A DNA stretch of 64,000 bases. Source: an uncultured Gammaproteobacteria bacterium (GTDB lineage Bacteria > Patescibacteriota > Microgenomatia > UBA1406 > HO2-37-13b). The stretch is taken from contig CAZTFB010000002.1 of assembly GCA_964612595.1 (NCBI GenBank), positions 188,933 through 252,932 of the forward strand. Direction: 5' to 3'. Below are positions 2,279 through 38,408 of the stretch, piece after piece; the first letter of the stretch is position 1; each line of letters starts with the position of its first letter. The notes below the pieces were generated by a model that was not told where the DNA came from, did not search any database, and was given only the letters and a program-made list of their open reading frames with translations. Both the position numbers and the translations under genes were made by a program.

Positions 2279-2295
2279 AACTACTATATATACAT

Positions 2296-3199: not shown

Positions 3200-3375
3200 C
3201 CGAAATGACACATTGGCTAACTATCCCACTCAGGAAAAAGGTCAGAACACAATTTGAGTGTTGTTATGGGAGGATGCTTTCAGACCAAGAGGTAGAAGAT
3301 ATTGCTGAAAATCTTACTGGATATATGGAAACAATCTTGAAGTTTAAGGCACGCACGACTAAGCGTAAAAGTTAG
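3196..3375 (+). CDS. 59-aa small protein, third coupled gene of the module
   Basis: ATG at 3196 overlaps the TGA of the upstream ORF (ATGA). Open to TAG at 3373-3375. Basic C-terminus KARTTKRKS. It falls below the 60-aa ORF-track cutoff. Confidence 0.3.
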   Translation: MTEMTHWLTIPLRKKVRTQFECCYGRMLSDQEVEDIAENLTGYMETILKFKARTTKRKS

Positions 3376-3485
3376 TATAATAAGTTCTAATGTTGTCCAA
3401 TTCCCCCAGCAAATATATCATAAGGCATCAAATAATATCTTCGTTTCTAACTCCACTTGACTACTACTACTATTACTACTAAGAT

Positions 3486-3875
3486 ATGTTTATGTCTGAA
3501 GATAACGAAACTCAATTAGCTGAAGCAGAAAGCAATCTAGAAGCTCCTGAGAAGACATTTCGAGTAGAAGTCCTTCGCATGACTGATGAGCCAAGTGATG
3601 GAACAATCTCAGGTAATCGTCACGAGAGTGTTCCATTTGAGATAACAGAATCATTGCTTGATGAACTTCGTGCCATTATAGACGAGATGAATGTTCGACC
3701 TTTTGGATGGGATGCAGAAGGTGGGCCAACTGCACAGGATCTTGTTGACACTATCCAATACAATCTTAACCATGAGCCCGTGGAAAATTTGGGTTTGTCT
3801 GATAAAAGTGTTGCTTTCATTGAAAATAGTGGACTATTTGAAACATTCACAAAAAAACAAGACAATTTAGAATAG
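3486..3875 (+). CDS. Acidic hypothetical protein
   Basis: 129-aa ORF with no overlapping competitor of similar quality. The start may be the second ATG at 3492. Confidence 0.45.
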   Translation: MFMSEDNETQLAEAESNLEAPEKTFRVEVLRMTDEPSDGTISGNRHESVPFEITESLLDELRAIIDEMNVRPFGWDAEGGPTAQDLVDTIQYNLNHEPVENLGLSDKSVAFIENSGLFETFTKKQDNLE

Positions 3876-3947
3876 GTGTTCACCCGCATAAAATAACTTC
3901 CAACTTCATCCCCGAGCCCCAGCATTTCTTCAGGACTCCTTCGGCCA

Positions 3948-3956
3948 TGATACAAT
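3948..3956 (+). promoter_or_regulatory. Extended -10 (TGaTACAAT) 6 nt upstream of ATG 3963
   Basis: TG at 3948-3949 and TACAAT at 3951-3956, followed by a 6-nt gap and the ATG. Confidence 0.45.
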
Positions 3957-3962
3957 GTATGC

Positions 3963-4328
3963 ATGAATAGGCAATTACTAATAGATGCTTTTGGATGGGG
4001 ATTTCTTCTTTGGTTAATCGGTTATGCGCTTGGAATAATGCTTTTTACTTTTGTTCCTCTTTCACTAATTGGTTGGATAATTATGCCAATCGGGACAGTT
4101 ATAACCTGGTGGGTATTGGTTAATAAAATAAAAGCAGACACATTTAATTATTATGTTAAGTTGGCTGTGGTATGGCTGGTAATGGCAATGGTTTGTGATT
4201 ATCTCTTCTTGGTAAAAGCATTCAAACCATCAGACGGCTATTACAAACTTGACGTTTACCTCTACTATTTTTTAATTTTCCTTTTACCAATTATCGTGGG
4301 ATGGAGAAGAAAGAAGGAATCGAAATAA
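3963..4328 (+). CDS. Small integral membrane protein (3-4 TM helices)
   Basis: Hydrophobic segments FGWGFLLWLIGYALGIMLFTF, LIGWIIMPIGTVITWWVLV, LAVVWLVMAMVCDYLFL and YLYYFLIFLLPIIVGW. Confidence 0.6.
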   Translation: MNRQLLIDAFGWGFLLWLIGYALGIMLFTFVPLSLIGWIIMPIGTVITWWVLVNKIKADTFNYYVKLAVVWLVMAMVCDYLFLVKAFKPSDGYYKLDVYLYYFLIFLLPIIVGWRRKKESK

Positions 4329-4329
4329 T

Positions 4330-5025
4330 ATGAATATGTTCAGGACAACAAAAGCAAATACCGTTGAAGAGTATCTTTCCATGGTTCCTGATGACAGAAA
4401 AGATGCAATATTATATTTACACACTTTCATCCAAAAAACAGTGCCCGCATTAAAACCGTACTTTGCAACCAATATGCTTGGGTAAGGTAAATTCAAGTAT
4501 ACTAACTATAAGAAAGAAACTATTGACTGGCCAATTATTGCCCTTGCCAACCAAAAACAATATATAAGTCTTTATGTTTGCTCAATACAAGATGGTGAGT
4601 ATGTTGCAGAAAAATACAAAAAAGCACTCGGTAAAGTAAGTGTCGGAAGAAGCTGTATCCGGTTCAATAAGCTCAAAGAGCTGAATTTTGAAGTTTTGAA
4701 GTGGGTATTAAAAGAAGCAGCAACAAATCCCGGTTGGCAATTAAAAAATAAACTAATTAATGCGAATTTACATATGAATGATTTTTCAAAACCTAAAAGG
4801 AAACGATATCTAATACCAGAATATGTTAAGCTGGCACTTGTAAAAGAAAGCGTTTTGAATTTATATCAATCGCGTCCTGCCTATCAGCAAAATGATTACA
4901 TTGGGTGGATAGAAAGAGCAAAAAGACCTGAAACACAATCAAGGCGATTAAGCCAGATGTTAAGTGAATTGAAGGCCGGAAATTTATACATGAACACGAG
5001 ATGGAACGGTTCAAGCACGAGATAA
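4330..5025 (+). pseudogene. DUF1801 (YdhG-like) + YdeI/OmpD-associated-like fusion gene interrupted by one in-frame TAA
   Basis: One reading frame runs 4330-5025 with a single stop, TAA at 4483-4485. After it, 70 sense codons follow before the first possible start (TTG 4696). The context NMLG*GKFKYTNY..WPIIALANQKQYISLYV matches the DUF1801 pattern, where I recall an aromatic residue at the stop position. Confidence 0.6.
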
Positions 5026-5125
5026 ATTAAAATAGAAGTTGCGAACTTTGTCTGCGGTTGACAGCAAAGGCATCTAGCTTCAATCAACTACCTTAAACTC
5101 TACCTCTCCAGGCTTGGATTCTGGC

Positions 5126-5134
5126 TGGTATAAT
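5126..5134 (+). promoter_or_regulatory. Extended -10 (TGgTATAAT) 6 nt upstream of ATG 5141
   Basis: TATAAT at 5129-5134, gap attatt, ATG at 5141. Confidence 0.5.
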
Positions 5135-5140
5135 ATTATT

Positions 5141-5779
5141 ATGTCAAAAAAATCGTCTCCTAAGGTACATTTCATTAAAAAAAAGGAAACTATTATCTTT
5201 GCATTGATTATTTTCTTGATTGTTATCGTCGCAGCAATACCCGCGTATTTTGCGATTTGGAGTTTTAAAAATAATTATAACGAAAAGATTATTGATCGTG
5301 AATTTCATAAAGATATTAGTCAATATCCAAATGTTAAAACAACAAAATTTACGTTGCGGGATGGAGGTAGTATGGTAACTTTAGATATCCCAGAAAAAGG
5401 TCAAGTTAGCTTTTGGTATGGGGTTGACCGCGTACCACGAATTCAATCAATAGGAAGATACAATACTTCGTTTACATGCTTTAATGTCGACAAAAACGGA
5501 AAAAAGGTCAGTTACGCATATGATACTTCTTTGTGGTTGGATGCGACATCTCCATACGCAAAGTGGTTTACTTTTAAAGTAAACACTATTGGCGATTTAA
5601 TTAATCGTTATAGTGATATTGAAACAGTTCTCAATACATTTCCAAAAAATCCAGAGCTTGTTGATTTCAATGATTCCTGGGGAGAAAGACAAATAGTTGA
5701 ACGCTCAAACCCAAATTTTCTGTTAAAACCTAACAATGGACAAGAATCACCGGTATGTGATTTGTATATTAATAATTAA
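5141..5779 (+). CDS. Membrane-anchored hypothetical protein
   Basis: MSKKSSPKVHFIKKKE is followed by the TM helix TIIFALIIFLIVIVAAIPAYFAIW. The start was moved from TTG 5114 to ATG 5141 because of the -10 box. Confidence 0.55.
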   Translation: MSKKSSPKVHFIKKKETIIFALIIFLIVIVAAIPAYFAIWSFKNNYNEKIIDREFHKDISQYPNVKTTKFTLRDGGSMVTLDIPEKGQVSFWYGVDRVPRIQSIGRYNTSFTCFNVDKNGKKVSYAYDTSLWLDATSPYAKWFTFKVNTIGDLINRYSDIETVLNTFPKNPELVDFNDSWGERQIVERSNPNFLLKPNNGQESPVCDLYINN

Positions 5780-6103
5780 ATTCAATTATAGATTGGTATG
5801 TAAAATTGCTTCTGAGAAGTTTGCCAAAAAGTTCGAACAACGTATATGTCGGTCAGCAATGTCAAATGCATTAATACCAGAATTTTTCGTAACAGACTAT
5901 AAAAAAATCTAGATTTCTATACAAACACCCTAGGTTTAAGTCGACTCGACCATCCTGAGAATATGTTGCCATATTCTTGCAACATCCCTCTTCGACAGCA
6001 GGGTTTCATTGTATGAGGAAGTAGAAGAAGCTTGGTATAGAAAAGGTGATAAAGAAATCGGTCACAGAGCGATTTTTCCCAAAATCTAGGATCAAGAGGG
6101 CCT

Positions 6104-6137
6104 GCTACCGACAGGTTGCTCTGAAGCTGTCGGTAGC
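6104..6137 (-). terminator. 11-bp perfect stem-loop just downstream of the two-component operon
   Basis: GCTACCGACAG (6104-6114) / CTGTCGGTAGC (6127-6137) with a 12-nt loop, 9 nt after the stop at 6147. No clear U-tract on the minus strand. Confidence 0.35.
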
Positions 6138-6146
6138 ATGACATCA

Positions 6147-6644
6147 TCAATGCATTTCCATACGCATTCTCATCTTTTGTCCCTTTCCGAATCCAAATAG
6201 ATACGAAGGGTCAATGTCATTTTTTTCTGCCCACATCTCAAGCTCCTCACGTCGCTTTTGAATTTTTGCGCGGCGCTCTTGGGGAGAGAGATTTTTTAGC
6301 TCCTCAAAATTTGCCTCTCTCTGGTTAAATAGCTCATTATGTTTTGCGATCAAAAGCTTCTTTTGAGCCTCTGTAAGCTTTCCGTCCTTAACCGCCTGAG
6401 AAAGCATATCTTCATAGCGAGCGCTCATTTCGCTATGGCGTTCTTTATGGATTTCGTCGAAAGCCTTTTGCACTTTATCTTCACTTACACCGAGTTTCTT
6501 AGACAAAGTCGACACAATAGTTTCTTTTTCAAGTCCGTAGAAACCGGCATTTACATTGTTGACGCTGACCGCAATCACTCCTAAAAGTGCAAAGCTTGTA
6601 ATAACGTATACTACTTTTTTATTTACTTTCTTCATATTGCTCAC
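6147..6644 (-). CDS. Secreted LTXXQ-motif protein (CpxP/Spy/ZraP-like) with Met/His-rich tail
   Basis: Signal-like N-terminus KKVVYVITSFALLGVIAVSVNNVNA, an LTEAQ motif, LSPQERRAKI, and the C-terminus KMRMRMEMH. SD GGGAGGTGA lies upstream. It is the last gene of the RR-HK operon. Confidence 0.5.
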   Translation of the reverse strand: MSNMKKVNKKVVYVITSFALLGVIAVSVNNVNAGFYGLEKETIVSTLSKKLGVSEDKVQKAFDEIHKERHSEMSARYEDMLSQAVKDGKLTEAQKKLLIAKHNELFNQREANFEELKNLSPQERRAKIQKRREELEMWAEKNDIDPSYLFGFGKGQKMRMRMEMH

Positions 6645-6694
6645 CTCCCTTCGTAATAATAATCAAAGTATATGAAGCATGTCTGAAAAATAGC

Positions 6695-7705
6695 TTAAGA
6701 AAGAGGTTGTTTTTTAGGAATACGGACAGTAAATGTTGTTCCAGTATTGAGACTACTTTCAACAGAAATTGACCCGTTGTGTTTTTTGACAATATGTTGT
6801 GCAATCGAAAGACCGAGTCCATATCCCGAGGATCCTTTGTGCGTGCGAGCTGTATCGGCGCGGTAGAATCTATCGAAAATATAGGGAAGGTCTTCTTTTG
6901 CAATTCCTACGCCCTGGTCGCGAATACTAATGAGCACTTCGGTTCGCTTTGTGGCGAGTGAAACACGTATCGTGCTTTTTTCTGGAGAGTATTTTATTGC
7001 ATTCTCAAAAAGCACCATAAAAAGGTTTGTTATCTCGTCGGTAATAATCGCCGCATAGACGTTTTTACCAGCAATATTTATTGCTATTTTTTTCTTTTGT
7101 GCGAGTGGTGTAATTTTTTTTCTTGCATTTTTCAGTATTGCTAGTAGTGATGTATTTTCAAACACGTGATGTGCGAGCGGCTTTTGTGACTGAGCGAGTT
7201 GGAGCAAGGCGCTGGTAAGCTCTTGTAGTCTATCAACTTCATCAATACTTTCGCGAATAATACGATCAGCTTCTTTAAGCGATTTCTTTTTACTTCTTGC
7301 AAAAACCTCAAAGGCAGTTTTTAGAGAGGTGAGAGGAGTTTTTAACTCATGCGATGCGTCGGAGATAAATCTGCTTTGCTCTAATACCATAGCATGTATG
7401 GGAGCAAGTGTTTTTCCTGATAAAAGCCATGCGATCATGCCAGAAAGTACAAAAATAATGCCATTAAGATAAAACAAGTTAATAATGAGATTATTCTTTG
7501 CTTCATCAATAAAACTCAGCTCGAGTATAAGCGGCGCCATTTTCTGCGACTCGAGCTGACGATATATGCGCGTTTTTTGACGAACTTCAATAAGACGAAG
7601 CTCGCGAAGCTGAAGTTGGTAGATGGTCACGGAAAAAATAAGACTTAAGGTCATAATCATAACGACATACCAAAGCGTTAGTTTTATGCGTGCTTTATGG
7701 AACAT
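6695..7705 (-). CDS. Sensor histidine kinase
   Basis: Two N-terminal TM helices, H-box SDASHELKTPLTSL, and the HATPase_c G-boxes IRDQGVGI and GYGLGLSIAQHIVKKHNGSISVES. Confidence 0.9.
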   Translation of the reverse strand: MFHKARIKLTLWYVVMIMTLSLIFSVTIYQLQLRELRLIEVRQKTRIYRQLESQKMAPLILELSFIDEAKNNLIINLFYLNGIIFVLSGMIAWLLSGKTLAPIHAMVLEQSRFISDASHELKTPLTSLKTAFEVFARSKKKSLKEADRIIRESIDEVDRLQELTSALLQLAQSQKPLAHHVFENTSLLAILKNARKKITPLAQKKKIAINIAGKNVYAAIITDEITNLFMVLFENAIKYSPEKSTIRVSLATKRTEVLISIRDQGVGIAKEDLPYIFDRFYRADTARTHKGSSGYGLGLSIAQHIVKKHNGSISVESSLNTGTTFTVRIPKKQPLS

Positions 7706-7707
7706 AA

Positions 7708-8367
7708 TTATTTTGTTGTTATTTTGTACCCAAACCCACGTATTGTTTTAATAAGACGCTCACCAATTTTTTGCCGGATGTTTCTAATATTCACCTCCAC
7801 AGTATTCGGCAAAACATCTGCATCGAAATTCCATACATGATCAATGATTTCTTGTTTCGATACAATCTTTCCAGGATTTCTCATGAGATACTCAAGGATG
7901 GAGTATTCCTTTTTCGATAAGTTAACGAGTGCATCTCTTTTTTTGACCATCTGACTGTATGTATTAACTTCAACATCGTGAGCTACGAGTGTTGTGCGCT
8001 TTATCTCGCGCGGTCTGCGTAACAGTGCTCGTATGCGTGCTAGTAATTCATCGAAAGCAAATGGTTTCACCAAATAATCATCTGCTCCGATATTTAGGCC
8101 ATCGACTTTATCATAGATTTGTGTTTTGGCGGTAAGCATAAGTATGGGTGTTGTTATATTATTTTTTCGTAGATCCTTACATATCTGCATACCGTCCATT
8201 CCTGGAAGCATTCTGTCTAAGAGAATAAGATCGTAGTTTTCTGTTGATGCCATGTCATAGCCAGCAAGACCATCGTAGGCGACGTCAACAGCGTAGCTTT
8301 CTTGCTCTAATCCCTTTTTAATGGTATCTGCGATACGGGTTTCATCTTCAATGCATAATATACGCAT
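7708..8367 (-). CDS. OmpR-family response regulator
   Basis: MRILCIEDE..., LILLDRMLPGMDG and MLTAK form the receiver domain, and a winged-helix C-terminus ends ..IKTIRGFGYKI. The start was trimmed to ATG 8367, which has TATAAT 6 nt upstream. Confidence 0.9.
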   Translation of the reverse strand: MRILCIEDETRIADTIKKGLEQESYAVDVAYDGLAGYDMASTENYDLILLDRMLPGMDGMQICKDLRKNNITTPILMLTAKTQIYDKVDGLNIGADDYLVKPFAFDELLARIRALLRRPREIKRTTLVAHDVEVNTYSQMVKKRDALVNLSKKEYSILEYLMRNPGKIVSKQEIIDHVWNFDADVLPNTVEVNIRNIRQKIGERLIKTIRGFGYKITTK

Positions 8368-8373
8368 ACACAT

Positions 8374-8379
8374 ATTATA
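8374..8379 (-). promoter_or_regulatory. -10 box TATAAT 6 nt upstream of response-regulator ATG
   Basis: The minus strand reads TATAAT-atgtgt-ATG. Confidence 0.45.
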
Positions 8380-8427
8380 CGTCTGTAGCTGAAATCTAGC
8401 TGAATTGTATGCGAGCATGTTCATTTT

Positions 8428-8436
8428 TGATATAAT
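8428..8436 (+). promoter_or_regulatory. Extended -10 (TGaTATAAT) 8 nt upstream of ATG 8445
   Basis: TG at 8428-8429 and TATAAT at 8431-8436. Confidence 0.45.
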
Positions 8437-8444
8437 ACCCACAT

Positions 8445-8756
8445 ATGAAGGAATACAGAGAAGCTCATATAAGCGCGAAGGACGAAGATCAAGCAAATTT
8501 AATTCTCAATACGCTACTTGAGAAAAAACTTGTGACCGGTGGATTACTTTTTATTGCTCCTGCTCGATTTTTGTGGAAAGAAAAGCTCGTCGACCTTCAA
8601 TATTTTAATATCACCGCCTTTACTATGGAAAAAAATCAGAAAGCGATTATCGAAACCGTAAAAAAAATCACCAACGAAGAACTCCCTACCATTTGGTTTA
8701 CAGAGATTGATGGAAGCGATGAGCTACTTGCATGGATCGATGACATGTTACAATGA
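8445..8756 (+). CDS. cutA: CutA-like divalent-cation tolerance protein
   Basis: Size (103 aa) and the pattern ..KLVTGG....PARFLWKEKL....YFNITAFT......II..VK......LPTIWFTEIDGSDELLAWI parallel CutA1 (..kLaAC....p..S.Y.WkG.i.........KT......l...i...HpYe.PEi..l.i..g...Yl.Wi). Confidence 0.55.
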   Translation: MKEYREAHISAKDEDQANLILNTLLEKKLVTGGLLFIAPARFLWKEKLVDLQYFNITAFTMEKNQKAIIETVKKITNEELPTIWFTEIDGSDELLAWIDDMLQ

Positions 8757-8759
8757 ACT

Positions 8760-10049
8760 ATGACCTGGAACGGTATCTATGTTGTCACCGACCCCACATG
8801 GGGAGATAACGGAAAAGGGAAAATCGTTGATCTTCTTTCTGACCGCGCCGAGATGTCTATACGCTACAATGGCGGTCCAAACGCTGGCCACACTGTTCGC
8901 AACGAACATGGCGAGTTTAAATTTCACCTCATGCCTTCTGCAATATTTAATCCGAATGCCCTTTGTGTTCTCGCCGATGCCGTAGTAATCGACCCGAAAA
9001 CGTTAGCTGAAGAGATTCTTGCCATTCGCACAGCAGGGGTCGGTATATCAGAGAAAAATCTTATGATAAGTCGGTCTGCGCATATGATTATGCCATGGCA
9101 CAGAGATAGAGATAACTTAAGAGAAACAGTGCGCGGCACGGGAAAGATTGGTACAACAGGTCGAGGTATAGGGCCAACGTATGCTGATCGTACAGAGCGT
9201 GTTGGATTACAGATGAAAGATTTGCTAGCTGGTGATTTTGAAAAGCGCTTGGAAAAAGAAATGGCATGGCAAGAAAAATTAGTAGCGCTGATGCGGGGAG
9301 ATGAATTTCGTTATGATCGTAAAGAAGTGATGGAAGAGTTGATGGCAGCTCGCGAAGTGCTAGCGCCATTAATAAATGATGTGCTGCCAGCGATTGGCGA
9401 ATATTTTTCGAAAGGAAAAAGAATTCTTGGAGAAGCAGGTCAAGGGGCACTTCTTGATCTTGATCGAGGAACGTATCCATATGTGACGTCGAGCCATCCA
9501 GGTGTTGTGGGGTTTTCGCTCACGACCGGCATTCCACCAAAGGCAGTAGATATGGTTATAGGGGTTACAAAAGCGTATACAACGCGTGTGGGCGAAGGTC
9601 CATTGCCGACAGAGTTGCTTGATGAAGATGGTGAACGAATACGAACAGTTGGTCATGAATTTGGGACAACAACAGGTCGTCCGCGTCGCTGTGGATGGTT
9701 AGATATTCCTGCATTGCGCTATGGATCGCAAGTTGCTGGAGCTGATGCATTAGCGCTTACAAAAATAGATATTTATGATGATTTTGACGAGATAAAAATA
9801 TGTGTAGGTTATGAGATTGATGGAAAGAAATATGAAAGTATTCCAAGTGTCGACATCGACTTCTTAAAGAATGCAAAGGCTGTGTATGAAACAGTGCAAG
9901 GTTGGAAATCGCCGACTTCGGACATTCGCGCACTACAAGATATGCCAAAAGAAGCACGTGAGTATATCAAGAGGGTTGAAAAGCTTGTGGGAAAACCAAT
10001 CTCCATTGTCTCCGTAGGTCCTGCGAGAGAAGAAACGATGTATTGTTGA
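8760..10049 (+). CDS. purA: Adenylosuccinate synthetase
   Basis: GDNGKGKIVD (P-loop), GGPNAGHT, TTGRGIGPTYADR and GTTTGRPRRCGW. Confidence 0.95.
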   Translation: MTWNGIYVVTDPTWGDNGKGKIVDLLSDRAEMSIRYNGGPNAGHTVRNEHGEFKFHLMPSAIFNPNALCVLADAVVIDPKTLAEEILAIRTAGVGISEKNLMISRSAHMIMPWHRDRDNLRETVRGTGKIGTTGRGIGPTYADRTERVGLQMKDLLAGDFEKRLEKEMAWQEKLVALMRGDEFRYDRKEVMEELMAAREVLAPLINDVLPAIGEYFSKGKRILGEAGQGALLDLDRGTYPYVTSSHPGVVGFSLTTGIPPKAVDMVIGVTKAYTTRVGEGPLPTELLDEDGERIRTVGHEFGTTTGRPRRCGWLDIPALRYGSQVAGADALALTKIDIYDDFDEIKICVGYEIDGKKYESIPSVDIDFLKNAKAVYETVQGWKSPTSDIRALQDMPKEAREYIKRVEKLVGKPISIVSVGPAREETMYC

Positions 10050-10055
10050 GATGTG

Positions 10056-10070
10056 AGAAACGGCAATTGA
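10056..10070. repeat. Left arm of 15-bp perfect inverted repeat
   Basis: AGAAACGGCAATTGA is the exact reverse complement of 10947-10961. Confidence 0.9.
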
Positions 10071-10242
10071 CCTTTCTGTTCCTAACATCCACTTCGGCAG
10101 CCAGCCGCTGGTCGATGTGATTCCGACCAGCGGCTGAGCTGCCTTGAAGCAGTACGGGGGGTCAGCCATTAAGCTGAACTACCCACCATACTCAGGGCAT
10201 ATGCCCTTCTTGTTGTTGAGGCTTTTTATTTAGTTGTGTTGG

Positions 10243-10710
10243 TTAGGCCCGGCTGGACTCCCCGAAGCGCGCCGTCCCCACGACGACGTACCCCGTAAGG
10301 AGCGCTTGGGACAGACGGTGGCCGGAGCCGCCGCTGGTGATCTCCATGAGCCGGAACTCGCGCATCGGCGCCATCGTCCCGAAGTGGCTGAACCGACCGG
10401 CAGGCCGTGGCGCGAACTGATGACCGTCCCTCTTGGTCGCCACATGACCGCCGGTGGTGCTGACGTTGATCCCGTTCGTGCAGATCTGACCGTGACGCCC
10501 CGTGGCGTGGAGATGGCCAGAACCCTCATCGAACCCGTAGGCGATCTGCATATGCCCGTCGTCACCGCCGGACTGCTGCATGATCGCCACATGGCCGGAG
10601 TTGTCGTTCGCGCCCGCGACCTGGTGGTCCCTGGAAGCGACGACACCGAAGACCATGATCGCCACGAACGCGATCACCAGAATCCATCGAGGGATTCGGA
10701 TCTCGTACAA
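10243..10710 (-). CDS. TM-anchored His/Gly-rich protein with high-GC codon usage (very weak Cu/Zn-SOD-like pattern)
   Basis: This is the only frame in the island with strong G/C at third codon positions. The TTG start is preceded by AAAGAGGTG. N-terminal TM helix IPRWILVIAFVAIMVFGVVAS. GHLHATGRHGQIC...TTGGH...LTGYVVVG loosely recalls the SodC motifs GFH.H..G.C / GGH / l.G.a.ViH, but metal ligands are missing. Confidence 0.55.
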   Translation of the reverse strand: MYEIRIPRWILVIAFVAIMVFGVVASRDHQVAGANDNSGHVAIMQQSGGDDGHMQIAYGFDEGSGHLHATGRHGQICTNGINVSTTGGHVATKRDGHQFAPRPAGRFSHFGTMAPMREFRLMEITSGGSGHRLSQALLTGYVVVGTARFGESSRA

Positions 10711-10946
10711 GGGTTACACCTCTTTCGTTCGATCGTGAGTCGAGTGGATTCCTCCCCGCCAGCTGCGGGGAGGGACATGCGGTCGGGTGGACACTGTCTA
10801 AGGCGGATCTCGAATCAAGCTTGCCTCCTTTCAAGGCTCATGTAGGGGGTTGACGCCAAGGTAGCGATTGGACGTTAGGGCAATAAAGACAAGCTTTGCT
10901 TACCTCTACAACCCTAACGTCCAGTAAAAATGTTGGTTTCTAATAA

Positions 10947-10961
10947 TCAATTGCCGTTTCT
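10947..10961. repeat. Right arm of 15-bp perfect inverted repeat
   Basis: TCAATTGCCGTTTCT is the exact reverse complement of 10056-10070. Confidence 0.9.
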
Positions 10962-11074
10962 GTCAAAGTACAAAATGTTTTTGCTGGTCGGACACGGCTA
11001 TTGTGTACGCCCTCAAAATTACTATCGGTAGTATAGGTCAGATTCTAAATCTTGTCAAATCAATAAATAGCAAC

Positions 11075-11083
11075 TGTTATAAT
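11075..11083 (+). promoter_or_regulatory. Extended -10 (TGtTATAAT) 6 nt upstream of ATG 11090
   Basis: TATAAT at 11078-11083, gap catgtc, ATG at 11090. Confidence 0.5.
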
Positions 11084-11089
11084 CATGTC

Positions 11090-11497
11090 ATGATCATTTA
11101 CCTTGCATGGATTCAGTCTATTGTTGCAACACTCGGAAGTCTCTATTTTAGCGAAGTCATGAAATTTCCACCTTGTGTTCTTTGTTGGTATCAAAGAATT
11201 TTTATGTATCCCCTCGTTTTCATTCTAGCCGTCGGCATGGTCCGTAAAGATAAAAAGATTCACACATATGTTTTGCCTTTAAGCCTCACAGGCCTATCTA
11301 TCGCGATATATCACAATTTACTTTATTATCAAATTCTTCCAGAAAGCGTTGCGCCTTGTGTTGCAGGAGTTTCATGCACAACAAAGTTTATACAATGGTT
11401 TGGCTTTGTAACAATCCCTCTACTTTCACTCATTGCATTTTCTGTAATTACTATCTGTATGTTGCTACATCTTCATCGATCAAAAAAACATTCATGA
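11090..11497 (+). CDS. DsbB/BdbC-family disulfide bond formation protein
   Basis: SLYFSEVMKFPPCVLCWYQRIFMYP carries the CxxC in periplasmic loop 1, there are four TM helices, and a second Cys pair is APCVAGVSC. The start was trimmed from GTG 11003. Confidence 0.75.
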   Translation: MIIYLAWIQSIVATLGSLYFSEVMKFPPCVLCWYQRIFMYPLVFILAVGMVRKDKKIHTYVLPLSLTGLSIAIYHNLLYYQILPESVAPCVAGVSCTTKFIQWFGFVTIPLLSLIAFSVITICMLLHLHRSKKHS

Positions 11498-11823
11498 GAA
11501 TTTGGGATCTTCCGCCATCACAGCTCTGTCGTAAGCATCTTTTAGGTGAACATAGAGAATTGCATGCACTTTATACCGTTATTACACAACAAAAAAAGGG
11601 CTATTCACAGCATCCCGAGACAAAACGCTGGGTTGGAAAGCTTAAAGCACTTTATAATCGCCACGATGACCTCGTAAAAGAAATGATGCAACGCGGATAT
11701 AGACACAACAGTCCACTAGAAGATAGTCCTATGTCCGACAGCGAACTACAAGATGTTTTTATCAATACAATTGAGGAACAAAAAGCGCTCTTAAACAATA
11801 AAAACTGCGATTGTCGCTTCTAG
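11494..11823 (+). CDS. Pyrimidine-dimer DNA glycosylase (T4 endonuclease V/DenV-like family)
   Basis: MRIWDLPPSQLCRKHLLGEHRELHAL is the typical N-terminus of the family. ATGA overlap with the dsbB-like gene. Confidence 0.7.
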   Translation: MRIWDLPPSQLCRKHLLGEHRELHALYTVITQQKKGYSQHPETKRWVGKLKALYNRHDDLVKEMMQRGYRHNSPLEDSPMSDSELQDVFINTIEEQKALLNNKNCDCRF

Positions 11824-11834
11824 CAAGCATGAGG

Positions 11835-11840
11835 TATAGT
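11835..11840 (+). promoter_or_regulatory. -10 box TATAGT 6 nt upstream of ATG 11847
   Basis: TATAGT-taaagc-ATG. Confidence 0.4.
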
Positions 11841-11846
11841 TAAAGC

Positions 11847-12785
11847 ATGGTACTGCATGCACTTTGGTATTTTGCACTTTTTGGCATCTTGTTACTCGGC
11901 GCAGATATAGCAATACGATCGGTTGAGAAAATATCTCGTTCCCTCCGTATCTCTTCTTTTGCAGTTTCATTTCTTATTCTAGGAGCCTTTACCTCTGTAG
12001 CAGAGTTTTCAGTAGGCATAAATGCAGTGATTGAAAATGATCCAGAAATTTATGTCGGTAATTTAATAGGAGCGTCCATAGTTTTGTTTATGCTGCTCAT
12101 CCCACTTCTCGCGATTATTGGCCACAAACTAGAAATCACCAAGGAGTTCCAAGGAAGCAACTTGGTTCATTCACTTTTTGTCATTGCAGCACCTGTGCTG
12201 TTGACGCTTAATGGACACGTAGGAAGACTTGACGGCATTATTGCACTTACGACCTATGTGCTACTTGCTTTTTCAATCCAAACAAAGAGGGGATTTGTGG
12301 CCACCCTCTTTGATCCGATACAAAAACGATCGCCCATTCGTAGAGAATTATTGCGCATTGTTATTGGAGTTATTATGATTTTTATAGCGAGTCATTACAT
12401 TGTTGTTGAAACAAACTACTTTGCAGAGTTACTTTCAGTTTCGCCCTTTATTATTAGCCTTATTATTATTTCACTGGGCACAAACATTCCCGAACTCTCA
12501 TTTGTTTTGCGCTCACTCTTTAAGAAAAACAATCAAGTCGCGCTCGGTGATTATATTGGATCTGCTGCTTTTAACACGTTTTTATTCGGCGTTTTAACAT
12601 TGGTCAATAATCAGCCGGTATTTTTAATAAAAACCTATCATGCAAGTCTTTTATTCTTAGTGATAAGTTTGATTTTGTTCTATTTCTTTGCAAAGTCACG
12701 CCAGTCTATATCAAGAGTGGAGGGTATTGTATTGCTCGTATTGTACGTTTTGTTTCTTTCTTCTGAGATTTTTCTCACTTCCTGA
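11847..12785 (+). CDS. Ca2+/Na+ antiporter (CaCA/YrbG family)
   Basis: About 10 TM helices with two alpha-repeat signatures, GNLIGASIV and ALGDYIGSAAFNTF. Confidence 0.75.
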   Translation: MVLHALWYFALFGILLLGADIAIRSVEKISRSLRISSFAVSFLILGAFTSVAEFSVGINAVIENDPEIYVGNLIGASIVLFMLLIPLLAIIGHKLEITKEFQGSNLVHSLFVIAAPVLLTLNGHVGRLDGIIALTTYVLLAFSIQTKRGFVATLFDPIQKRSPIRRELLRIVIGVIMIFIASHYIVVETNYFAELLSVSPFIISLIIISLGTNIPELSFVLRSLFKKNNQVALGDYIGSAAFNTFLFGVLTLVNNQPVFLIKTYHASLLFLVISLILFYFFAKSRQSISRVEGIVLLVLYVLFLSSEIFLTS

Positions 12786-12816
12786 TATAATATAGACTTC
12801 TCACCTAGAGATTACT

Positions 12817-14646
12817 ATGAAATCAATACGAAACATTGCTATTATTGCTCACGTTGACCATGGGAAAACCACATTGGTCGACGCGCTATTGAAACAAACA
12901 AAAACCTTTCGAGACAATCAAAAGGAAATGTTCCAGGACCTTATTATGGATTCGGGTGACCTGGAACGTGAGAAGGGGATTACTATTCTTTCAAAGAACA
13001 CCTCGATTTTCTACGAAGACACAAAAATAAATATTATCGATACCCCTGGTCATGCTGATTTTGGCGGTGAGGTTGAACGTGTATTAAACATGGCTTCTGG
13101 AGCAATTCTGCTTGTTGATGCCGCTGAAGGCCCACTTCCCCAGACGCGTTTTGTCTTAAAAAAAGCACTTGAGAATAAACTGAAAATTATTCTTGTTATT
13201 AATAAAATCGATAAGAAAGATGCGCGACCTCTTGCTGTGCATGCTGAAGTTGAAAATCTGTTCTTGGAGCTCGCACATGATGAGAGCGCCCTCGACTTTA
13301 CGACACTTTTTGCAGTCGGGCGCGATGGGAAAGCATTTTATGAGCTTCCAGAGGATTATTCAAAAACCGAAGGTGCAACTTTAAAACCGCTTTTCGATAC
13401 TATCATTAAAGAAATTGAGGATGTATCAAAACCTGTTGATGAACCCTTCCAAATGCTGATTTCTACACTAGATCAGGATGCATATGTCGGAAAGCTTTGT
13501 GTGGGTAAGGTAACGCGCGGCACATGCTCAGTAAATCAGATGATTGCGCTTGTTTCTGAGGATGGATTGCAGGGTACTTACAAAGTTACAAAACTTTTTA
13601 CTTCAACAGGTCTCCAAAGAGAAATGGTGGAGACGGTTACAGCGGGTGATATCGTTGCGATTGCTGGTATTCCTGAGTTGACCATCGGCCAGACTATCAC
13701 AGATCCAACCCATCCAGAAGCGCTTCCAACAATTTCTGTTGAAGAACCAACGCTAAAAATTACTTTGGGACCAAACACCTCACCTTTTGCAGGAAAAGAA
13801 GGTGAATTTACGACAAGTCGCCAAATTAAGGAGCGACTTATGAAGGAAAAAGAGGTTAATCTTGGACTCCATATTGAACCAGATACACAATCAGTTAATT
13901 TTGTTATTTCTGGGCGCGGTGAATTACATCTTTCTGTATTGATTGAGACGATGCGTCGTGAAGGATTTGAGATGCAGGTTTCCCGTCCTGAAGTGCTCTA
14001 CAAAGAGATTGAAGGAAGAATGCATGAGCCGTTTGAAGAGGTGACGATTGACGTGCATCCAGACTACGTGGGTGCAGTAAATGAAGAAATGGGAAAGCGC
14101 CGCGCTGTTATGCAAAGTATGCATAATGAAATGACGGGCACGTCGCGATTGGTTTTTAAGATTGCTTCAGCAAACCTTCTTGGTATTCGTAGCACATTAA
14201 TGACAAAGACGCGTGGAACGGCTGTTATGTCGAGTTACTTTTTAGGCTATGAGCCTAAGCAAGGTGGTGGCTTAGAAAGTCTTCGTGGTGGTGCGATGAT
14301 TGCGACACAGACAGCAGTATCAACGACATATGGTATATTAAATGTTCAGTCACGAGGTAATCTATTTATTGCCCCAGCAGTGCAAGTGTATGAAGGTATG
14401 GTTGTCGGTGTGAGTTCACGCCAGGATGATATGGAAGTTAATGTATGTAAAGTAAAGAATTTAACAAATAACAGGTCGTCTGGAGAGGGTGTTACAGATA
14501 GTCTCACACCGCATACGATCATGACGCTTGAGGAGTGCCTCGATTTCTTAGGAGACGACGAATTGCTCGAGGTAACCCCAAAATCGCTGCGCATTCGTAA
14601 GAAACTCCTAAAAGAGGCGCAGCGCCGCGTTGCAGGAAGAAAGTAA
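12817..14646 (+). CDS. typA: Translational GTPase TypA/BipA
   Basis: IRNIAIIAHVDHGKTTLVD, DTPGHADFGGEVER, NKIDK, and TypA-type C-terminal domains. Confidence 0.95.
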   Translation: MKSIRNIAIIAHVDHGKTTLVDALLKQTKTFRDNQKEMFQDLIMDSGDLEREKGITILSKNTSIFYEDTKINIIDTPGHADFGGEVERVLNMASGAILLVDAAEGPLPQTRFVLKKALENKLKIILVINKIDKKDARPLAVHAEVENLFLELAHDESALDFTTLFAVGRDGKAFYELPEDYSKTEGATLKPLFDTIIKEIEDVSKPVDEPFQMLISTLDQDAYVGKLCVGKVTRGTCSVNQMIALVSEDGLQGTYKVTKLFTSTGLQREMVETVTAGDIVAIAGIPELTIGQTITDPTHPEALPTISVEEPTLKITLGPNTSPFAGKEGEFTTSRQIKERLMKEKEVNLGLHIEPDTQSVNFVISGRGELHLSVLIETMRREGFEMQVSRPEVLYKEIEGRMHEPFEEVTIDVHPDYVGAVNEEMGKRRAVMQSMHNEMTGTSRLVFKIASANLLGIRSTLMTKTRGTAVMSSYFLGYEPKQGGGLESLRGGAMIATQTAVSTTYGILNVQSRGNLFIAPAVQVYEGMVVGVSSRQDDMEVNVCKVKNLTNNRSSGEGVTDSLTPHTIMTLEECLDFLGDDELLEVTPKSLRIRKKLLKEAQRRVAGRK

Positions 14647-14648
14647 GA

Positions 14649-14654
14649 TATAAT
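14649..14654 (+). promoter_or_regulatory. -10 box TATAAT 6 nt upstream of ATG 14661
   Basis: TATAAT-gttcaa-ATG. Confidence 0.5.
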
Positions 14655-14660
14655 GTTCAA

Positions 14661-15137
14661 ATGAATGATGAAGACTACATGAGGGTAGTTCTGCAAGATG
14701 CATATAATGCTAAGAAAATTGGCAATCTGCCAAGTGCTTCAATTCTAGTAAAGAACCATGAGATTATTTCTCGAGGAACAAGTTGTGTAGCTGTTGATTT
14801 TGATCCATCAGCACACGGTGATATGGTTTGTATTCGTAAAGCTTGCGCTCAACTTCAGTCACTAGATCTCTCAAAATGTGCACTCTATTCGATTATTGAA
14901 CCATGTGCTATGTGTCTCACCTGTGCAGCGTGGGCATCGATGTCTAAAGTTGTTTTTGGAGCATATAAAGAAGATATTCTAGAAAACTCATATCTTGTTA
15001 AAGGATATCATGCAGTAGATTTTGGCAGAAACCTTTCAACTTATGACGGAAACAGAATAAATATTGTTGGAGGTGTTTTGCGAGATGAATGTACGGCTAT
15101 CATGTCGAACGTAATAAACTGGCAGATCAAACAATAG
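14661..15137 (+). CDS. CMP/dCMP-type zinc deaminase family protein (TadA/guanine-deaminase-like) with HGD instead of HAE
   Basis: The zinc motif EPCAMCLTCAAWA (PCxxC) is present, but the upstream motif reads SAHGDMVCI where the family normally has H(A/C)E. Confidence 0.7.
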   Translation: MNDEDYMRVVLQDAYNAKKIGNLPSASILVKNHEIISRGTSCVAVDFDPSAHGDMVCIRKACAQLQSLDLSKCALYSIIEPCAMCLTCAAWASMSKVVFGAYKEDILENSYLVKGYHAVDFGRNLSTYDGNRINIVGGVLRDECTAIMSNVINWQIKQ

Positions 15138-15170
15138 GGCACGATCCTCGACAGGTTGCGGTCTTCTTAC

Positions 15171-15201
15171 AAAAAACCACAGACAAAAGCCTGTGGTTTT
15201 A
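15171..15201. terminator. Bidirectional rho-independent terminator
   Basis: AAAACCACAG (15173-15182) / CTGTGGTTTT (15191-15200) with an 8-nt loop. A-run on the left and T-run on the right, between convergent genes. Confidence 0.65.
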
Positions 15202-15224
15202 TGCTACGGCATGCATAGAGAATT

Positions 15225-15422
15225 TTATTTCTTTTTCTTTGCTGTTGTTTTTTTCTTAGCTACGACCTTCTTCTTGGCGATGGTCTTCTTTACTGCTTTC
15301 TTTACCGTTTTCTTGACTGCTGCTTTTTTTGGCGCGGCCTTCTTAACGACGGTCTTCTTTACAGTCTTTTTCTTAGCTACAACCTTCTTCTTGGCGACTG
15401 TTTTCTTCTTTGCTGCTGGCAT
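15225..15422 (-). CDS. Lys/Ala-rich histone H1-like nucleoid protein
   Basis: 65 aa made of KKxV/AKK repeats (MPAAKKKTVAKKKVVAKKKTVKK...). Strong SD AAGGAGG upstream. The Phe-rich plus-strand ORF is its antisense shadow. Confidence 0.7.
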   Translation of the reverse strand: MPAAKKKTVAKKKVVAKKKTVKKTVVKKAAPKKAAVKKTVKKAVKKTIAKKKVVAKKKTTAKKKK

Positions 15423-15501
15423 GTGTGTTTCCCCTCCTTTCTATGGAAAAACTTAATGGCTACTTAATTAAGAATAGAAGGATTTTATAGAAATTACAAT
15501 A

Positions 15502-16707
15502 TTAGATTTTGATCAGTAGTCCCGCGAGGACGGTGCCAACACCTACAAGGGCGAAGATAAATGCAATGGTCATAGAGTTTCGCGAAAGTCCTGTCTGAGG
15601 GAGTGTTGGTTGTGAGGTAACAAGTGCTTTGGTGGGAAGCGGTGTAGATGTCGCATTAACTATGATTATGTCTGTTGGTGCCGGTGCACTCACACTTATT
15701 GGTGTTGGTGTAGCAGTTGGCGGATTATAGGTACATGCGTTTGATTGACGTGCTGAGCTTGCACCACACTCTTCATTTACTGCCTCAACATAACATGAAT
15801 AGCTGTGTCCTGCAATAGCTGTAAACTGAGCTATGGTGCCAACAATCTTTTTGTTTGGATTGTACCCTTGGATAGGTAATCCTGTGGTGTCATCACGTAT
15901 AGTGACAAGATAATAATCGCTTCCTGTCGACGCATTCCATGTGCATTGTGCACTTGAGGTGGTACATGCAAGTGCGATGTTTGAAACTGCGCTTGGAATT
16001 GGACAGGCTGTTGGTGTAGGTAGTGGCGTTGATGTTGCGGTTGGTTTAGATGTTGGCGTTGCCGTCGCTGAAGGAGCAGGTGTATTTGTTGGTTGCCCAG
16101 GTCGAATTGTTGGTGTTAATGTAGGCGTCAAAGTAAGTGTAGGTATTGCCGTTGGCGTTGGAGATGCGCTAGGAGTTGGTGTTCCTGAAGGGAAACATGC
16201 CTCGCCTTCTGGATTTTCACATAGTTTTCTTCCATCAGGATAATATATACATTGCAGTCCTGGTGCACAGCGAGGTACGATCTCGTCTTCTTCGCAAGGC
16301 TCGCATTGACCGGGTAGTATTGGTGTCGGAGACGGTGTGCCAGATGGAGGAATTTGACATATAATGGGTTGCTCGCTGCGTTTCTTACACGACAAATCGT
16401 TTGTGCTCGCAACTTCGCAATAAACTGGAACAGGAAGTGTACGAGGATCAAGATTGTCAAAAGATACAGATGTCCCACTTGTGACAGTTTTCTCTACAAC
16501 AGTATTTCCAGAACTATCAACAAGTCGGACGGTATAACTTCCTTCTGTATCCCAGTTGCACGTAATCTGTTTTAACTGTACCGGAACTTCTTCTGCCTCG
16601 TTTTTTGTTGTTTGGCGTTCACGGACAAAAATAATACCAATTACAAGCATAATAATCAGAAACACTAGTCCGGCAAAAAGGCTTAATTTTTTATTTTGTT
16701 CGTTCAT
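15502..16707 (-). CDS. Cys-rich PT-linker surface protein with LPQTG sorting signal
   Basis: N-terminal TM/signal anchor, two Cys-framed beta-type domains, and PT-rich linkers. The C-terminus is LPQTG (15589-15603) plus the hydrophobic helix MTIAFIFALVGVGTVLAGLLIKI. Confidence 0.75.
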   Translation of the reverse strand: MNEQNKKLSLFAGLVFLIIMLVIGIIFVRERQTTKNEAEEVPVQLKQITCNWDTEGSYTVRLVDSSGNTVVEKTVTSGTSVSFDNLDPRTLPVPVYCEVASTNDLSCKKRSEQPIICQIPPSGTPSPTPILPGQCEPCEEDEIVPRCAPGLQCIYYPDGRKLCENPEGEACFPSGTPTPSASPTPTAIPTLTLTPTLTPTIRPGQPTNTPAPSATATPTSKPTATSTPLPTPTACPIPSAVSNIALACTTSSAQCTWNASTGSDYYLVTIRDDTTGLPIQGYNPNKKIVGTIAQFTAIAGHSYSCYVEAVNEECGASSARQSNACTYNPPTATPTPISVSAPAPTDIIIVNATSTPLPTKALVTSQPTLPQTGLSRNSMTIAFIFALVGVGTVLAGLLIKI

Positions 16708-16708
16708 A

Positions 16709-38357: not shown

Positions 38358-38408
38358 GACAACTTTGCTTCGGCGGTTCGTCGTGGTTGGGCAGGAGGAC
38401 TCGAGCCG

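Follow-up and report, generated by a model that had tools for sequence, protein, structure and literature searches.

A GC-rich block between purA and dsbB as a candidate native transcription unit of a Woesebacteria-like CPR lineage, with a six-codon uORF and a mosaic orphan gene

Pneumococcal pspA and neisserial opa and pilE are mosaic, recombining surface-protein loci, and Rhs cores are compositionally deviant. Of the RAPP-like arrest cores, the most robust is RGPP; RDPP is permissive in part, and even a minimal RxPP can stall ribosomes (PMC12992588, PMC10951233). RAPP-like upstream open reading frames (uORFs) have been found upstream of metal-homeostasis and DsbA/thioredoxin genes (PMC12992588, PMC10951233). 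Here we describe a GC-rich block, within a 64-kb window (the whole stretch of DNA that was analyzed, 64,000 nucleotides), that encodes a mosaic protein and a uORF with the R-x-P-P end common to RAPP-like arrest peptides (ApdA, ApdP, ApcA, SecM, and CruR). We put at about 0.5 the probability that the block is a native minus-strand transcription unit, specific to a Woesebacteria-like CPR lineage and not a recent insertion, that combines a panhandle mRNA, uORF stalling, and a hypervariable allele.

The block is flanked by purA and dsbB, as identified with Pfam, and is bounded by a perfect 15-nt inverted repeat, AGAAACGGCAATTGA (10056 to 10070) and TCAATTGCCGTTTCT (10947 to 10961). The two arms are the only copies of the repeat within the window, and chance alone would give approximately 0.0007 perfect inverted pairs of 15 nt in a 1.25-kb stretch. 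GC content per 100 nt is 0.59 to 0.70 at approximately 10100 to 10850 and 0.28 to 0.46 in the flanks. Overall, the block has a GC content of 0.62 to 0.70 compared with 0.41, and a GC content at third codon positions (GC3) of 0.83 compared with 0.35. An earlier reading made from the letters of this DNA (here, the sequence-only reading) had reported the perfect repeat, the GC jump, and a minus-strand ORF, all of which are present, and the GC3 values justify its description of the composition as foreign-looking. The same reading had pointed to a palindrome with a T-rich tail, which we also find: AGGGCATATGCCCT (10194 to 10207), returned by a terminator scan, is the likely terminator of purA because the T-rich tail follows on the plus strand. 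On the other side of the block, the dsbB start is most likely the ATG at 11090 rather than position 11003. cutA is also present at the locus, besides dsbB.

A homologous GC-rich block with an identical bounding repeat was found at the same locus in all eight related lineages (8/8), always next to purA and upstream of dsbB; in three loci (L003 to L005), purA and the block are separated by one small extra gene. Among the closest purA loci are those of a Candidatus Woesebacteria MAG and of a 938-kb chromosome (OZ246401.1), consistent with the CPR-type genome that had been suspected. The purA products of the relatives are 85 to 86% identical in amino acid sequence, with saturated synonymous sites, and no empty site was found, the block being present in all relatives with purA at an identity of at least 85%. 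The presence of the block and its identical repeat in every relative found argues against the recent acquisition considered by the sequence-only reading. That reading had also held that native DNA should appear in relatives as the same segment with the same composition but no repeats; the segment and its composition are indeed retained, and the repeats are retained as well.

The junctions of the block were reproduced by two independent Logan assemblies from different runs, one of which (L001) spans both junctions and has five nucleotide differences from the window. An abrupt change in composition and many overlapping ORFs in all frames of GC-rich DNA are what would be expected of an assembly or amplification chimera, or of a structured noncoding RNA with a spurious ORF, but we give these explanations almost no credence. 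The same junctions occur in independent assemblies and MAGs, which contradicts the chimera that had been proposed, and the block has a consistent one-frame GC3 signal, a conserved Shine-Dalgarno sequence and start codon, and a homologous protein family. Moreover, Rfam searches gave no match in the block, returning one tRNA elsewhere and sub-threshold noise when run at gathering thresholds over the whole window or in E-value mode over 9900 to 11150.

The sole frame of high GC3 (0.83) in the block is the minus-strand ORF at 10243 to 10710, which has a TTG start with the Shine-Dalgarno sequence AAAGAGGTG (10717 to 10725) six to seven nucleotides upstream. Its GC1 of 0.63 and GC2 of 0.49 are near those of purA (0.58 and 0.43, respectively). 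Exactly one high-GC3 frame, with a GC3 of 0.78 to 0.89, was present per instance (10/10 instances), and the main ORFs remain intact despite many indels. The frame, start codon, and Shine-Dalgarno sequence support the previous assignment of this ORF as a real gene. The product is a 155-amino-acid orphan with 15% Gly, 6.5% His, and a hydrophobic N-terminal helix, predicted to be a membrane helix or signal anchor, in agreement with the membrane anchor noted before. Members of the protein family are 155 to 230 amino acids long and 23 to 49% identical, with G..HRL invariant. The family comprises only 16 clusters among 5.8 billion proteins; nine had readable flanks, and all nine were in the same CPR locus or carried its leader, the remaining seven being short contigs. 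Profile searches of Pfam, NCBIfam, PHROGs, and PDB with the protein family returned nothing meaningful, and an AlphaFold2 model built from a 16-sequence alignment had a pLDDT of 36, which is uninformative on the fold. Thus, the Cu/Zn-SOD-like fold that had been put forward for checking found no backing.

The alleles of the orphan gene are mosaics. Protein P0009 consists of the N terminus of P0010 joined to the C terminus of P0003, and similar block swaps were seen in P0014, P0007, and P0017. Sliding identity alternates between 0.98 to 1.00 and 0.44 to 0.66, with flanks at 0.83 to 0.93, and the 3′ module is swapped between allele types as well. Between L004 and L005, 4-fold sites differ by 4% in the island ORF and by 32% in the adjacent purA. 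For some mosaic alleles known from a single contig, a strain-chimeric metagenome assembly could be the source. The coding part would represent a hypervariable allele; recombination in the conserved flanks may shuffle its blocks and carry them from one related genome to another. Judged from the sequences, the mosaicism is in keeping with diversifying selection on a surface or secreted protein, and a mosaic secreted protein would be a candidate host-, phage-, or competitor-facing molecule of an uncultured episymbiont lineage.

The GC3 of the island ranges from 0.78 to 0.90 among lineages, compared with 0.26 to 0.35 for native genes, and it holds at 0.81 to 0.90 while native 4-fold sites are saturated between genomes (p of 0.58 to 0.71). 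A second GC-rich orphan gene, at 38.2 to 39.2 kb, has the same layout and its own 5′-3′ repeat, which is conserved, shows one double change from A-U to U.G, and pairs in folds. Polarized changes at 4-fold sites of the second island, approximately 75% of which are GC, comprised 11 GC-to-AT and 8 AT-to-GC changes, a balance that indicates a stationary state near a GC3 of 0.7 rather than decay. High GC, concentrated at third codon positions, therefore looks like a maintained, stationary property of both unrelated genes. Compositional islands are usually read as recent horizontal transfer, but the two islands are old, lie in synteny, and seem to be in compositional equilibrium, and thus composition alone misleads in these genomes. 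A local force must hold GC3 at 0.7 to 0.9 in a genome of 41% GC. Selection on RNA structure is not the obvious cause, as the coding region alone was no more structured than shuffled controls (folding z of −1.18 in the sense orientation and 0.03 in the antisense orientation).

A GC3 of 0.83 against a background of 0.35 is typical of high-GC genomes, and the block might have been acquired from such a donor, for example an actinobacterial host, before the lineages split, with native regulatory flanks gained later and a composition that decays slowly or is renewed by further rounds of import. The block has GC-rich terminator hairpins that lack U-tracts, as this explanation would have it, and RGPP/RAPP uORFs are common in Actinomycetota (PMC12992588). 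We nevertheless consider ancient acquisition rather unlikely. No homologue was found in high-GC genomes among 5.8 billion and 1.84 billion proteins, and tblastn and blastn searches of phages and plasmids gave no match, such that the high-GC donor invoked by the sequence-only reading did not materialize. Moreover, GC3 remains at 0.8 to 0.9 between lineages saturated at native synonymous sites, and the balanced changes in the second island (11 versus 8) are stationary and not decaying. We conclude that no donor is found in the collections searched and that these data favor a native transcription unit.

Transcription of a native unit would start at P1, a predicted promoter on the minus strand at 11030 to 11058 in which TTGACA and TATACT are separated by a 17-nt spacer (11/12 match to consensus). 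The same arrangement is found at the equivalent position in seven other loci (L158, L035, L003, L004, L005, L037, and L034), with TATAAT as the −10 element in L003. We propose that this sigma-70-type promoter (11058 to 11030) would give rise to an mRNA of approximately 1 kb, beginning with an AT-rich leader that contains the 5′ repeat arm and a stabilizing 24-bp hairpin, continuing with the six-codon uORF, a GC hairpin, and the main ORF, and probably ending with 3′ hairpins and the 3′ repeat arm. The 5′ leader upstream of the repeat arm (10962 to 11022, minus strand) contains GAGGGCGTACACAAnAGCCGTGT, a block of conserved columns in an alignment of nine loci. An invariant 32-nt block, CTTTGACAGAAACGGCAATTGATTATTAGAAA (10937 to 10968, minus strand), includes the 5′ arm (10947 to 10961) and has one G-to-A difference in L003. 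The 5′ arm is probably transcribed because it lies downstream of P1. Another TTGACA adjoins the 5′ arm and was rejected as a promoter, as it has no acceptable −10 element and P1, a far better promoter that is conserved, lies approximately 70 nt upstream of the arm.

The leader also contains HP1, a 24-bp RNA hairpin in the 5′ untranslated region (UTR) at 10869 to 10923 on the minus strand that is defined by covariation. Alignment cells were paired in 97.6% of cases, compared with 40 to 51% when partners were slid; ten pairs showed compensatory double changes, and the covariation score was reached by none of 500 shuffles. Moreover, several G.U pairs are valid on the minus-strand RNA only. The motif pair at 10869 to 10880 and 10912 to 10923 had been described as a 12-bp stem; it does form a stem but is the base of the longer hairpin. 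A third copy of the motif (10081 to 10091) does not track HP1 in relatives, so the 11-bp duplication that had been taken to mark an insertion is not conserved.

Downstream of HP1 on the minus strand, a Shine-Dalgarno sequence, GGAGG (10824 to 10828), precedes a uORF of six codons (10798 to 10818; TTG ATT CGA GAT CCG CCT TAG) that encodes M-I-R-D-P-P-stop. The uORF is present in all loci covering the region (11/11) as M-[I/A]-R-[D/G/E]-P-P-stop; the core is RDPP in the window, RGPP in most relatives, and also REPP, and the uORF is lengthened to eight codons in one lineage. The codons found across loci include all four CGN arginine codons, CCT as well as CCC, and each of the three stops. The synonymous codons and the switches of stop codon indicate that the peptide, not the nucleotide sequence, is conserved. 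The uORF stop codon lies 87 nt upstream of the main start codon, and the two ORFs run in the same direction. Between the two ORFs lies HP2, a 9-bp GC hairpin (10751 to 10773, minus strand) found in the minimum-energy fold, the arms of which resemble CCUCC, and hence an anti-Shine-Dalgarno sequence, on the 5′ side and GGAGG on the 3′ side. HP2 appeared in the minimum-energy fold of all six lineages folded (6/6), their sequences differing. A weak hairpin holds the main Shine-Dalgarno sequence with the start codon in the four orthologues whose folded segment covers the region. A switch running from the uORF to the Shine-Dalgarno sequence was rejected, as folds of six orthologues gave no convincing common alternative pairing. 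We propose that ribosomes translating the uORF could stall on the RxPP core and that the stall would set the level of main ORF translation. If so, the six-codon M-I-R-G/D-P-P-stop ORF would be a minimal natural test of RxPP arrest without tunnel contacts and would extend RxPP-type motifs to Patescibacteria.

The 3′ UTR on the minus strand carries the hairpin of 6 and 13 bp that had been noticed before, GGCAGC-CAGCCGCTGGTCG...CGACCAGCGGCTG-GCTGCC (10096 to 10143), the sequence of which is kept in L003, L004, L005, and L037, together with an extra inserted hairpin in each. Alleles of the L158 type have a different, terminator-like hairpin in its place. The 3′ repeat arm follows, reading UCAAUUGCCGUUUCU on the mRNA (10056 to 10070, minus strand), and the minimum-energy and centroid folds of the full-length transcript, from the window as from L158, join it to the 5′ arm. 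The folding z score of the full transcript was −7.0, compared with +0.19 for a purA control, and two bases that extend the stem, A-U in L003 to L005 and G.U in the window, pair on the sense RNA only. The paired arms may close the whole message as a panhandle that would limit exonuclease access and/or keep the message inactive or processable. Because both arms are invariant, covariation lends the pairing no support, and because the terminator-like hairpin of L158-type alleles and a GATTTTT come immediately ahead of the 3′ arm, some transcripts may not extend to it. A separate 10-nt complementarity between the leader (10983 to 10992) and the 3′ hairpin (10122 to 10131) was discarded, as it is not conserved in relatives.

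The 5′ arm is identical in all 14 contigs, representing approximately eight lineages, and the 3′ arm shows no variation in any contig long enough to include it. The free variation of HP1 among these lineages suggests that the arms are under a sequence-specific constraint, which could reflect a protein site. The arms might then act at the DNA level, either as terminal inverted repeats of a nonautonomous MIC- or MITE-like element moved in trans or as paired recombinase or regulator sites for DNA looping or the exchange of cassettes. Invariance at every one of the 15 positions in both arms, next to an RNA hairpin that covaries, would fit such sites, as would the confinement of the motif to two copies in 64 kb and the fact that the segment between the arms, 3′ module included, is what is exchanged; homologous recombination in the conserved flanks, however, explains the exchange equally well. 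MICs and MITEs likewise have perfect terminal inverted repeats around one passenger gene and no transposase, but the block has no target-site duplication outside the arms (the outer flanks, ..GATGTG and, on the minus strand, ..CTTTGAC, occur in all loci and form no direct repeat) and is a single copy fixed in position and orientation in all relatives, which tells against the terminal-inverted-repeat element of the sequence-only reading. As that reading had noted, no recombinase is nearby: none was found within approximately 10 kb by Pfam among the ten larger window ORFs scanned (88 to 8496 and 11356 to 16737), a set that left out several ORFs of 110 to 170 amino acids at 2.8 to 4.3 kb (small for a recombinase), or in the precomputed Pfam annotations of the orthologous locus L158. 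No cognate transposase was found among the Pfam-scanned window ORFs. A 15-mer scan of viral contigs gave at least 120 single matches and no paired ones, and the matches are therefore attributed to chance. We consider DNA-level sites decidedly unlikely.

Perfect inverted repeats around a complete gene for a variable, surface-type protein could also form an invertible phase-variation switch, flipped by a recombinase encoded elsewhere, and the TTGACA just outside the 5′ arm would allow inversion to uncouple promoter elements. Such a switch is highly improbable, as all 14 contigs, from many samples, have the block in one orientation with no breaks at the arms, the Pfam-scanned window ORFs and annotated L158 genes include no invertase, and the strong P1 lies well outside the arms, where inversion would leave it unaffected.

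Returning to a native transcription unit, a broader proposal is that genes of one class, represented at least twice in 64 kb, persist in this CPR lineage as panhandle-closed mRNAs with an insulated base composition. Their GC3 of 0.7 to 0.9 would be actively maintained against the AT-biased mutation of the genome, either by biased gene conversion or by selection on the RNA, whether for stability, for rare-codon throttling, or for protection from AU-targeting RNases or toxins of the cell itself. In one of the genes, a six-codon uORF, which would be the shortest natural RxPP arrest ORF described so far, would act as the gate and control a hypervariable surface protein exchanged between species. 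We offer this proposal tentatively, as possible but doubtful.

Several described systems resemble parts of the proposed unit. Like RAPP-like uORFs, the uORF is upstream of, and codirectional with, a gene for a predicted exported protein; the dsbB and cutA genes at the locus are of the neighbor classes reported for RAPP-like uORFs (PMC12992588, PMC10951233); and Ile precedes Arg, as in ApdP (..CIRAPP) and SecM (GIRAGP). The RAPP-type arrest peptides known so far run to tens of residues and carry signals at the N terminus, whereas the six-codon uORF is without a signal or transmembrane segment, a tunnel-spanning N-terminal region, or a sensor domain, and, unlike in those peptides, its stop codon directly follows the second Pro.

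The hok/mok mRNA of a type I toxin-antitoxin system has a long-range stem between its 5′ and 3′ UTRs (the tac/fbi fold-back) that closes the full-length message, as predicted here, and shares with the block a leader ORF with its Shine-Dalgarno sequence in a small hairpin and a product with a hydrophobic N terminus (PMC9841398). The hok toxin is approximately 50 amino acids long, whereas the main protein here is 155 to 230 amino acids with a large, variable extracytoplasmic part; moreover, the uORF does not overlap the main ORF, the closing stem excludes the Shine-Dalgarno sequence, and no antisense RNA or plus-strand promoter was found (promoter scan, 9900 to 11200). In icaR of Staphylococcus aureus, a segment of the 3′ UTR can pair with the 5′ UTR of its own message by complementarity, a feature shared by the predicted UTRs here (PMC3868564). 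The arms of the first island are far from both Shine-Dalgarno sequences, unlike in icaR, but ACCUCCUCUGUG in the 3′ UTR of the second island pairs in the fold with the Shine-Dalgarno region, as in icaR (PMC3868564).

Relative to the pspA, opa, pilE, and Rhs loci, the block belongs to an orphan family, is accompanied by no silent donor cassettes that we could see, and has a far larger GC shift (GC3 from 0.35 to 0.83). Like those loci, it has conserved flanks, blocks of near identity alternating with unalignable ones, alleles common to several lineages, and a composition that is deviant over the long term.

The block between purA and dsbB is bounded by a perfect 15-nt inverted repeat (10056-10070 and 10947-10961) with no other copy in the window; by our estimate, about 0.0007 perfect 15-nt inverted pairs per 1.25 kb would be expected by chance. 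G+C content is 0.59-0.70 over approximately 10100-10850, compared with 0.28-0.46 outside. The minus-strand ORF at 10243-10710 has a GC3 of 0.83 with GC1 and GC2 similar to those of purA, and thus the anomaly lies at synonymous positions. The repeat, the G+C jump, the ORF, the hairpins, and the two neighboring genes are present as a sequence-only reading had described them. The dsbB start is probably ATG 11090, as in relatives (MIIYLAWIQ...); a longer ORF from GTG 11003 would overlap the conserved minus-strand promoter (window 11003-11090).

That reading had proposed either an assembly chimera or a recently acquired, possibly mobile, cassette from a high-GC donor. Chimerism was refuted, as the same protein is encoded on two Logan contigs assembled from separate sequencing runs. 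Contig L001 extends from within purA across the entire block to beyond the far arm with 5 nucleotides different from the window, and contig L002 covers the dsbB-side junction. Loci for comparison were gathered by a PurA scan of species-representative genomes, a search of metagenomes for the promoter-side block, and look-ups of protein family members. Three genomes emerged from the PurA scan at 85% identity, namely a 938-kb chromosome and two MAGs (one of them Candidatus Woesebacteria), before matches dropped to 56%; the metagenome search added four loci, and the look-ups added others. Recent acquisition did not hold, since in all three PurA-scan relatives a block of 1.1-1.2 kb and 0.6-0.73 G+C lies downstream of purA, and in each both 15-nt arms are the same as in the window. 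Nor does the locus resemble a mobile element: purA and dsbB flank the block in the same order and orientation in every contig with sufficient flank, and the arms are invariant and lack a target-site duplication across 14 contigs from about 8 lineages. Moreover, as first noticed, no recombinase or transposase was found within about 10 kb, either when ten of the larger window ORFs were scanned with Pfam or in the precomputed annotations of contig L158; the closest tRNA is 17 kb off.

Locus content differs among relatives, as in L003 to L005 purA and the block are separated by an additional gene for a 111-112-aa membrane protein (5287-5629), and in L158 cutA and purA are separated by one for a cytochrome b5 (10073-10450). 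An OmpR-type response regulator, its histidine kinase, and cutA adjoin purA in the window (6695-8756) and are kept in L158; they might regulate the His-rich protein or act together with it. The window start (88-2796) holds a DNA methylase, an FtsK-alpha fragment, and a SocA/Panacea antitoxin-like gene, which may mark a defence or mobile region.

A search of 5.8 billion proteins with the 155-aa protein encoded by the block gave one match at 98%, and a full HMMER search of 1.84 billion representatives gave three more credible relatives. A family profile recovered 16 clusters, in which no Pfam domains were found. Nine of the 16 members have readable flanks, and all nine lie in the same CPR locus or carry its leader, the remaining seven being short contigs. 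With homologues confined to this locus among members with readable flanks, and with no match in the phage and plasmid collections searched, the proposed high-GC donor was not found. The protein has an N-terminal helix or signal anchor followed by Ala-rich A-x-A-kind stretches, and AlphaFold gave no confident fold for it; the family conserves a [G/D]H.VA.I.Q.G motif and an invariant G..HRL close to the C terminus.

Alleles of the family are mosaic, with stretches of 100% identity alternating with unalignable ones. P0009 combines the P0010 N terminus with the P0003 C terminus, and P0014, P0007, and P0017 contain recombined blocks of P0005-type and P0015-type alleles; alleles from single metagenome contigs could be strain chimeras, but several mosaic alleles were found in more than one sample or MAG. 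Along the block, nucleotide identity switches between 0.98-1.00 and 0.44-0.66, with flanks at 0.83-0.93, and L004 and L005 differ at 4% of 4-fold sites in the island ORF versus 32% in the adjacent purA. The 4-fold contrast and the alternating identity indicate that allele blocks have been exchanged recently between diverged genomes. One allele (P0018, L037 at approximately 2600-3760) has a frameshifted C-terminal third in two sources, reflecting either a pseudogene or an assembly error common to both.

Island ORFs have a GC3 of 0.81-0.90 in every lineage, versus 0.26-0.35 for native genes, the 4-fold sites of which are saturated between these genomes (p 0.58-0.71). The coding region by itself shows no unusual structure (z -1.18). 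A second GC-rich block at 38225-39190 (G+C 0.61-0.63; plus-strand ORF 38331-39092, GC3 0.73) encodes an orphan protein unlike the first, represented by just 6 clusters and without a hit in Pfam. Four lineages share the synteny of this block (RRM gene, orphan, msrB, mgtE) and an equally high G+C content (GC3 0.72-0.78). When its 4-fold changes were polarised with two outgroups, 11 were GC-to-AT and 8 were AT-to-GC, with G or C occupying about 75% of the sites, which, within such small counts, implies a GC3 that may be near-stationary at about 0.7 rather than decaying towards 0.3. An in-frame TGA lies at 38310-38312, 29 codons past ATG 38223, where relatives have GGC (Gly), and therefore the window copy is N-terminally truncated or a pseudogene; recoding is unlikely because purA of the same genome uses TGA as a genuine stop. 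The AT-rich, nearly invariant leader of this gene (38100-38200) contains nested stems, GTGACCG/CGGTCAC and AGGCACCTATT/AATAGGTG, with a single compensatory change, T-A to C-G, in L164, and a terminator-like hairpin with a T-run lies just upstream (approximately 38036-38066). The leader had no Rfam match and thus may be an undescribed cis-regulatory RNA.

Alignment of orthologous blocks gave the anatomy of the first island's minus-strand transcript. A conserved promoter, P1 (TTGACA-17-TATACT/TATAAT, 11058-11030), precedes a leader with an invariant 32-nt block that includes the 5′ arm (10947-10961), followed by a 24-bp hairpin, HP1 (10869-10923), and a 6-codon uORF preceded by a GGAGG Shine-Dalgarno sequence. 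A GC hairpin, HP2 (10751-10773), forms in all six lineages folded though its sequence varies, and the main ORF (10243-10710) begins with TTG after a Shine-Dalgarno sequence and is followed by 3′ hairpins and then the 3′ arm (10056-10070). HP1 is supported by compensatory changes in ten pairs, by several G.U pairs valid on the minus strand only, and by pairing in 97.6% of cells versus 40-51% with partners slid. The 12-bp stem noted earlier is the base of HP1, and the third motif copy is not a duplication scar, as HP1's changes in relatives are not mirrored by it. In every lineage, a CCUCC-type (anti-SD-like) arm of HP2 pairs with a GGAGG-type arm despite unlike sequences, a hint that the arms compete with both Shine-Dalgarno sequences.

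The uORF encodes M-[I/A]-R-[D/G/E]-P-P-stop in all 11 loci covering it, with two additional N-terminal codons in one lineage. Arg is CGA, CGT, CGG, or CGC, the second Pro CCT or CCC, and the stop TAG, TGA, or TAA, and thus conservation is at the peptide level. The motif agrees with I-R-A-P-P of ApdP and I-R-A-G-P of SecM, but every known arrest-peptide member is much longer. Ribosome stalling is possible with a minimal RxPP motif, RGPP being the strongest RAPP-like arrest core and RDPP partly permissive, and RAPP-like uORFs are located before genes for metal homeostasis and DsbA/thioredoxin-type proteins (PMC12992588, PMC10951233).

We favor a role for the inverted repeat as an RNA closing stem (panhandle). 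The 5′ arm falls within the leader, given P1 upstream, and window-type alleles have no terminator ahead of the 3′ arm. When the full transcript is folded, the arms pair in the minimum-energy and the centroid structure for both the window and an L158-type allele, and the full transcript folds with a z of -7.0 against shuffles (purA, +0.19). Moreover, two stem-extending positions that are A-U in L003 to L005 are G.U in the window. A conserved 5′-3′ inverted pair of its own, AGGTCAGTGC (38094-38103) and GCACTGACCT (39135-39144), is also found in the second block, and L166/L167 show one double change in it from A-U to U.G. This repeat pairs in the full-length fold, as does an adjoining 3′ UTR stretch, ACCUCCUCUGUG, with the complementary Shine-Dalgarno region CACAGAGAGGU. 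However, a DNA-level site is a serious rival: the arms never vary while HP1 does, which suggests sequence-specific recognition, and L158-type alleles have a terminator-like hairpin and GATTTTT immediately before the 3′ arm. We conclude that the locus holds a conserved gene that is hypervariable, deviates in composition, and has a layered leader, a real finding of more interest than a simple island and on grounds other than those first proposed. Sequence, conservation, and literature together point to putative RxPP stalling at the uORF and a candidate panhandle, and such a closing stem would functionally resemble hok tac/fbi (PMC9841398) and the icaR UTR pairing (PMC3868564).
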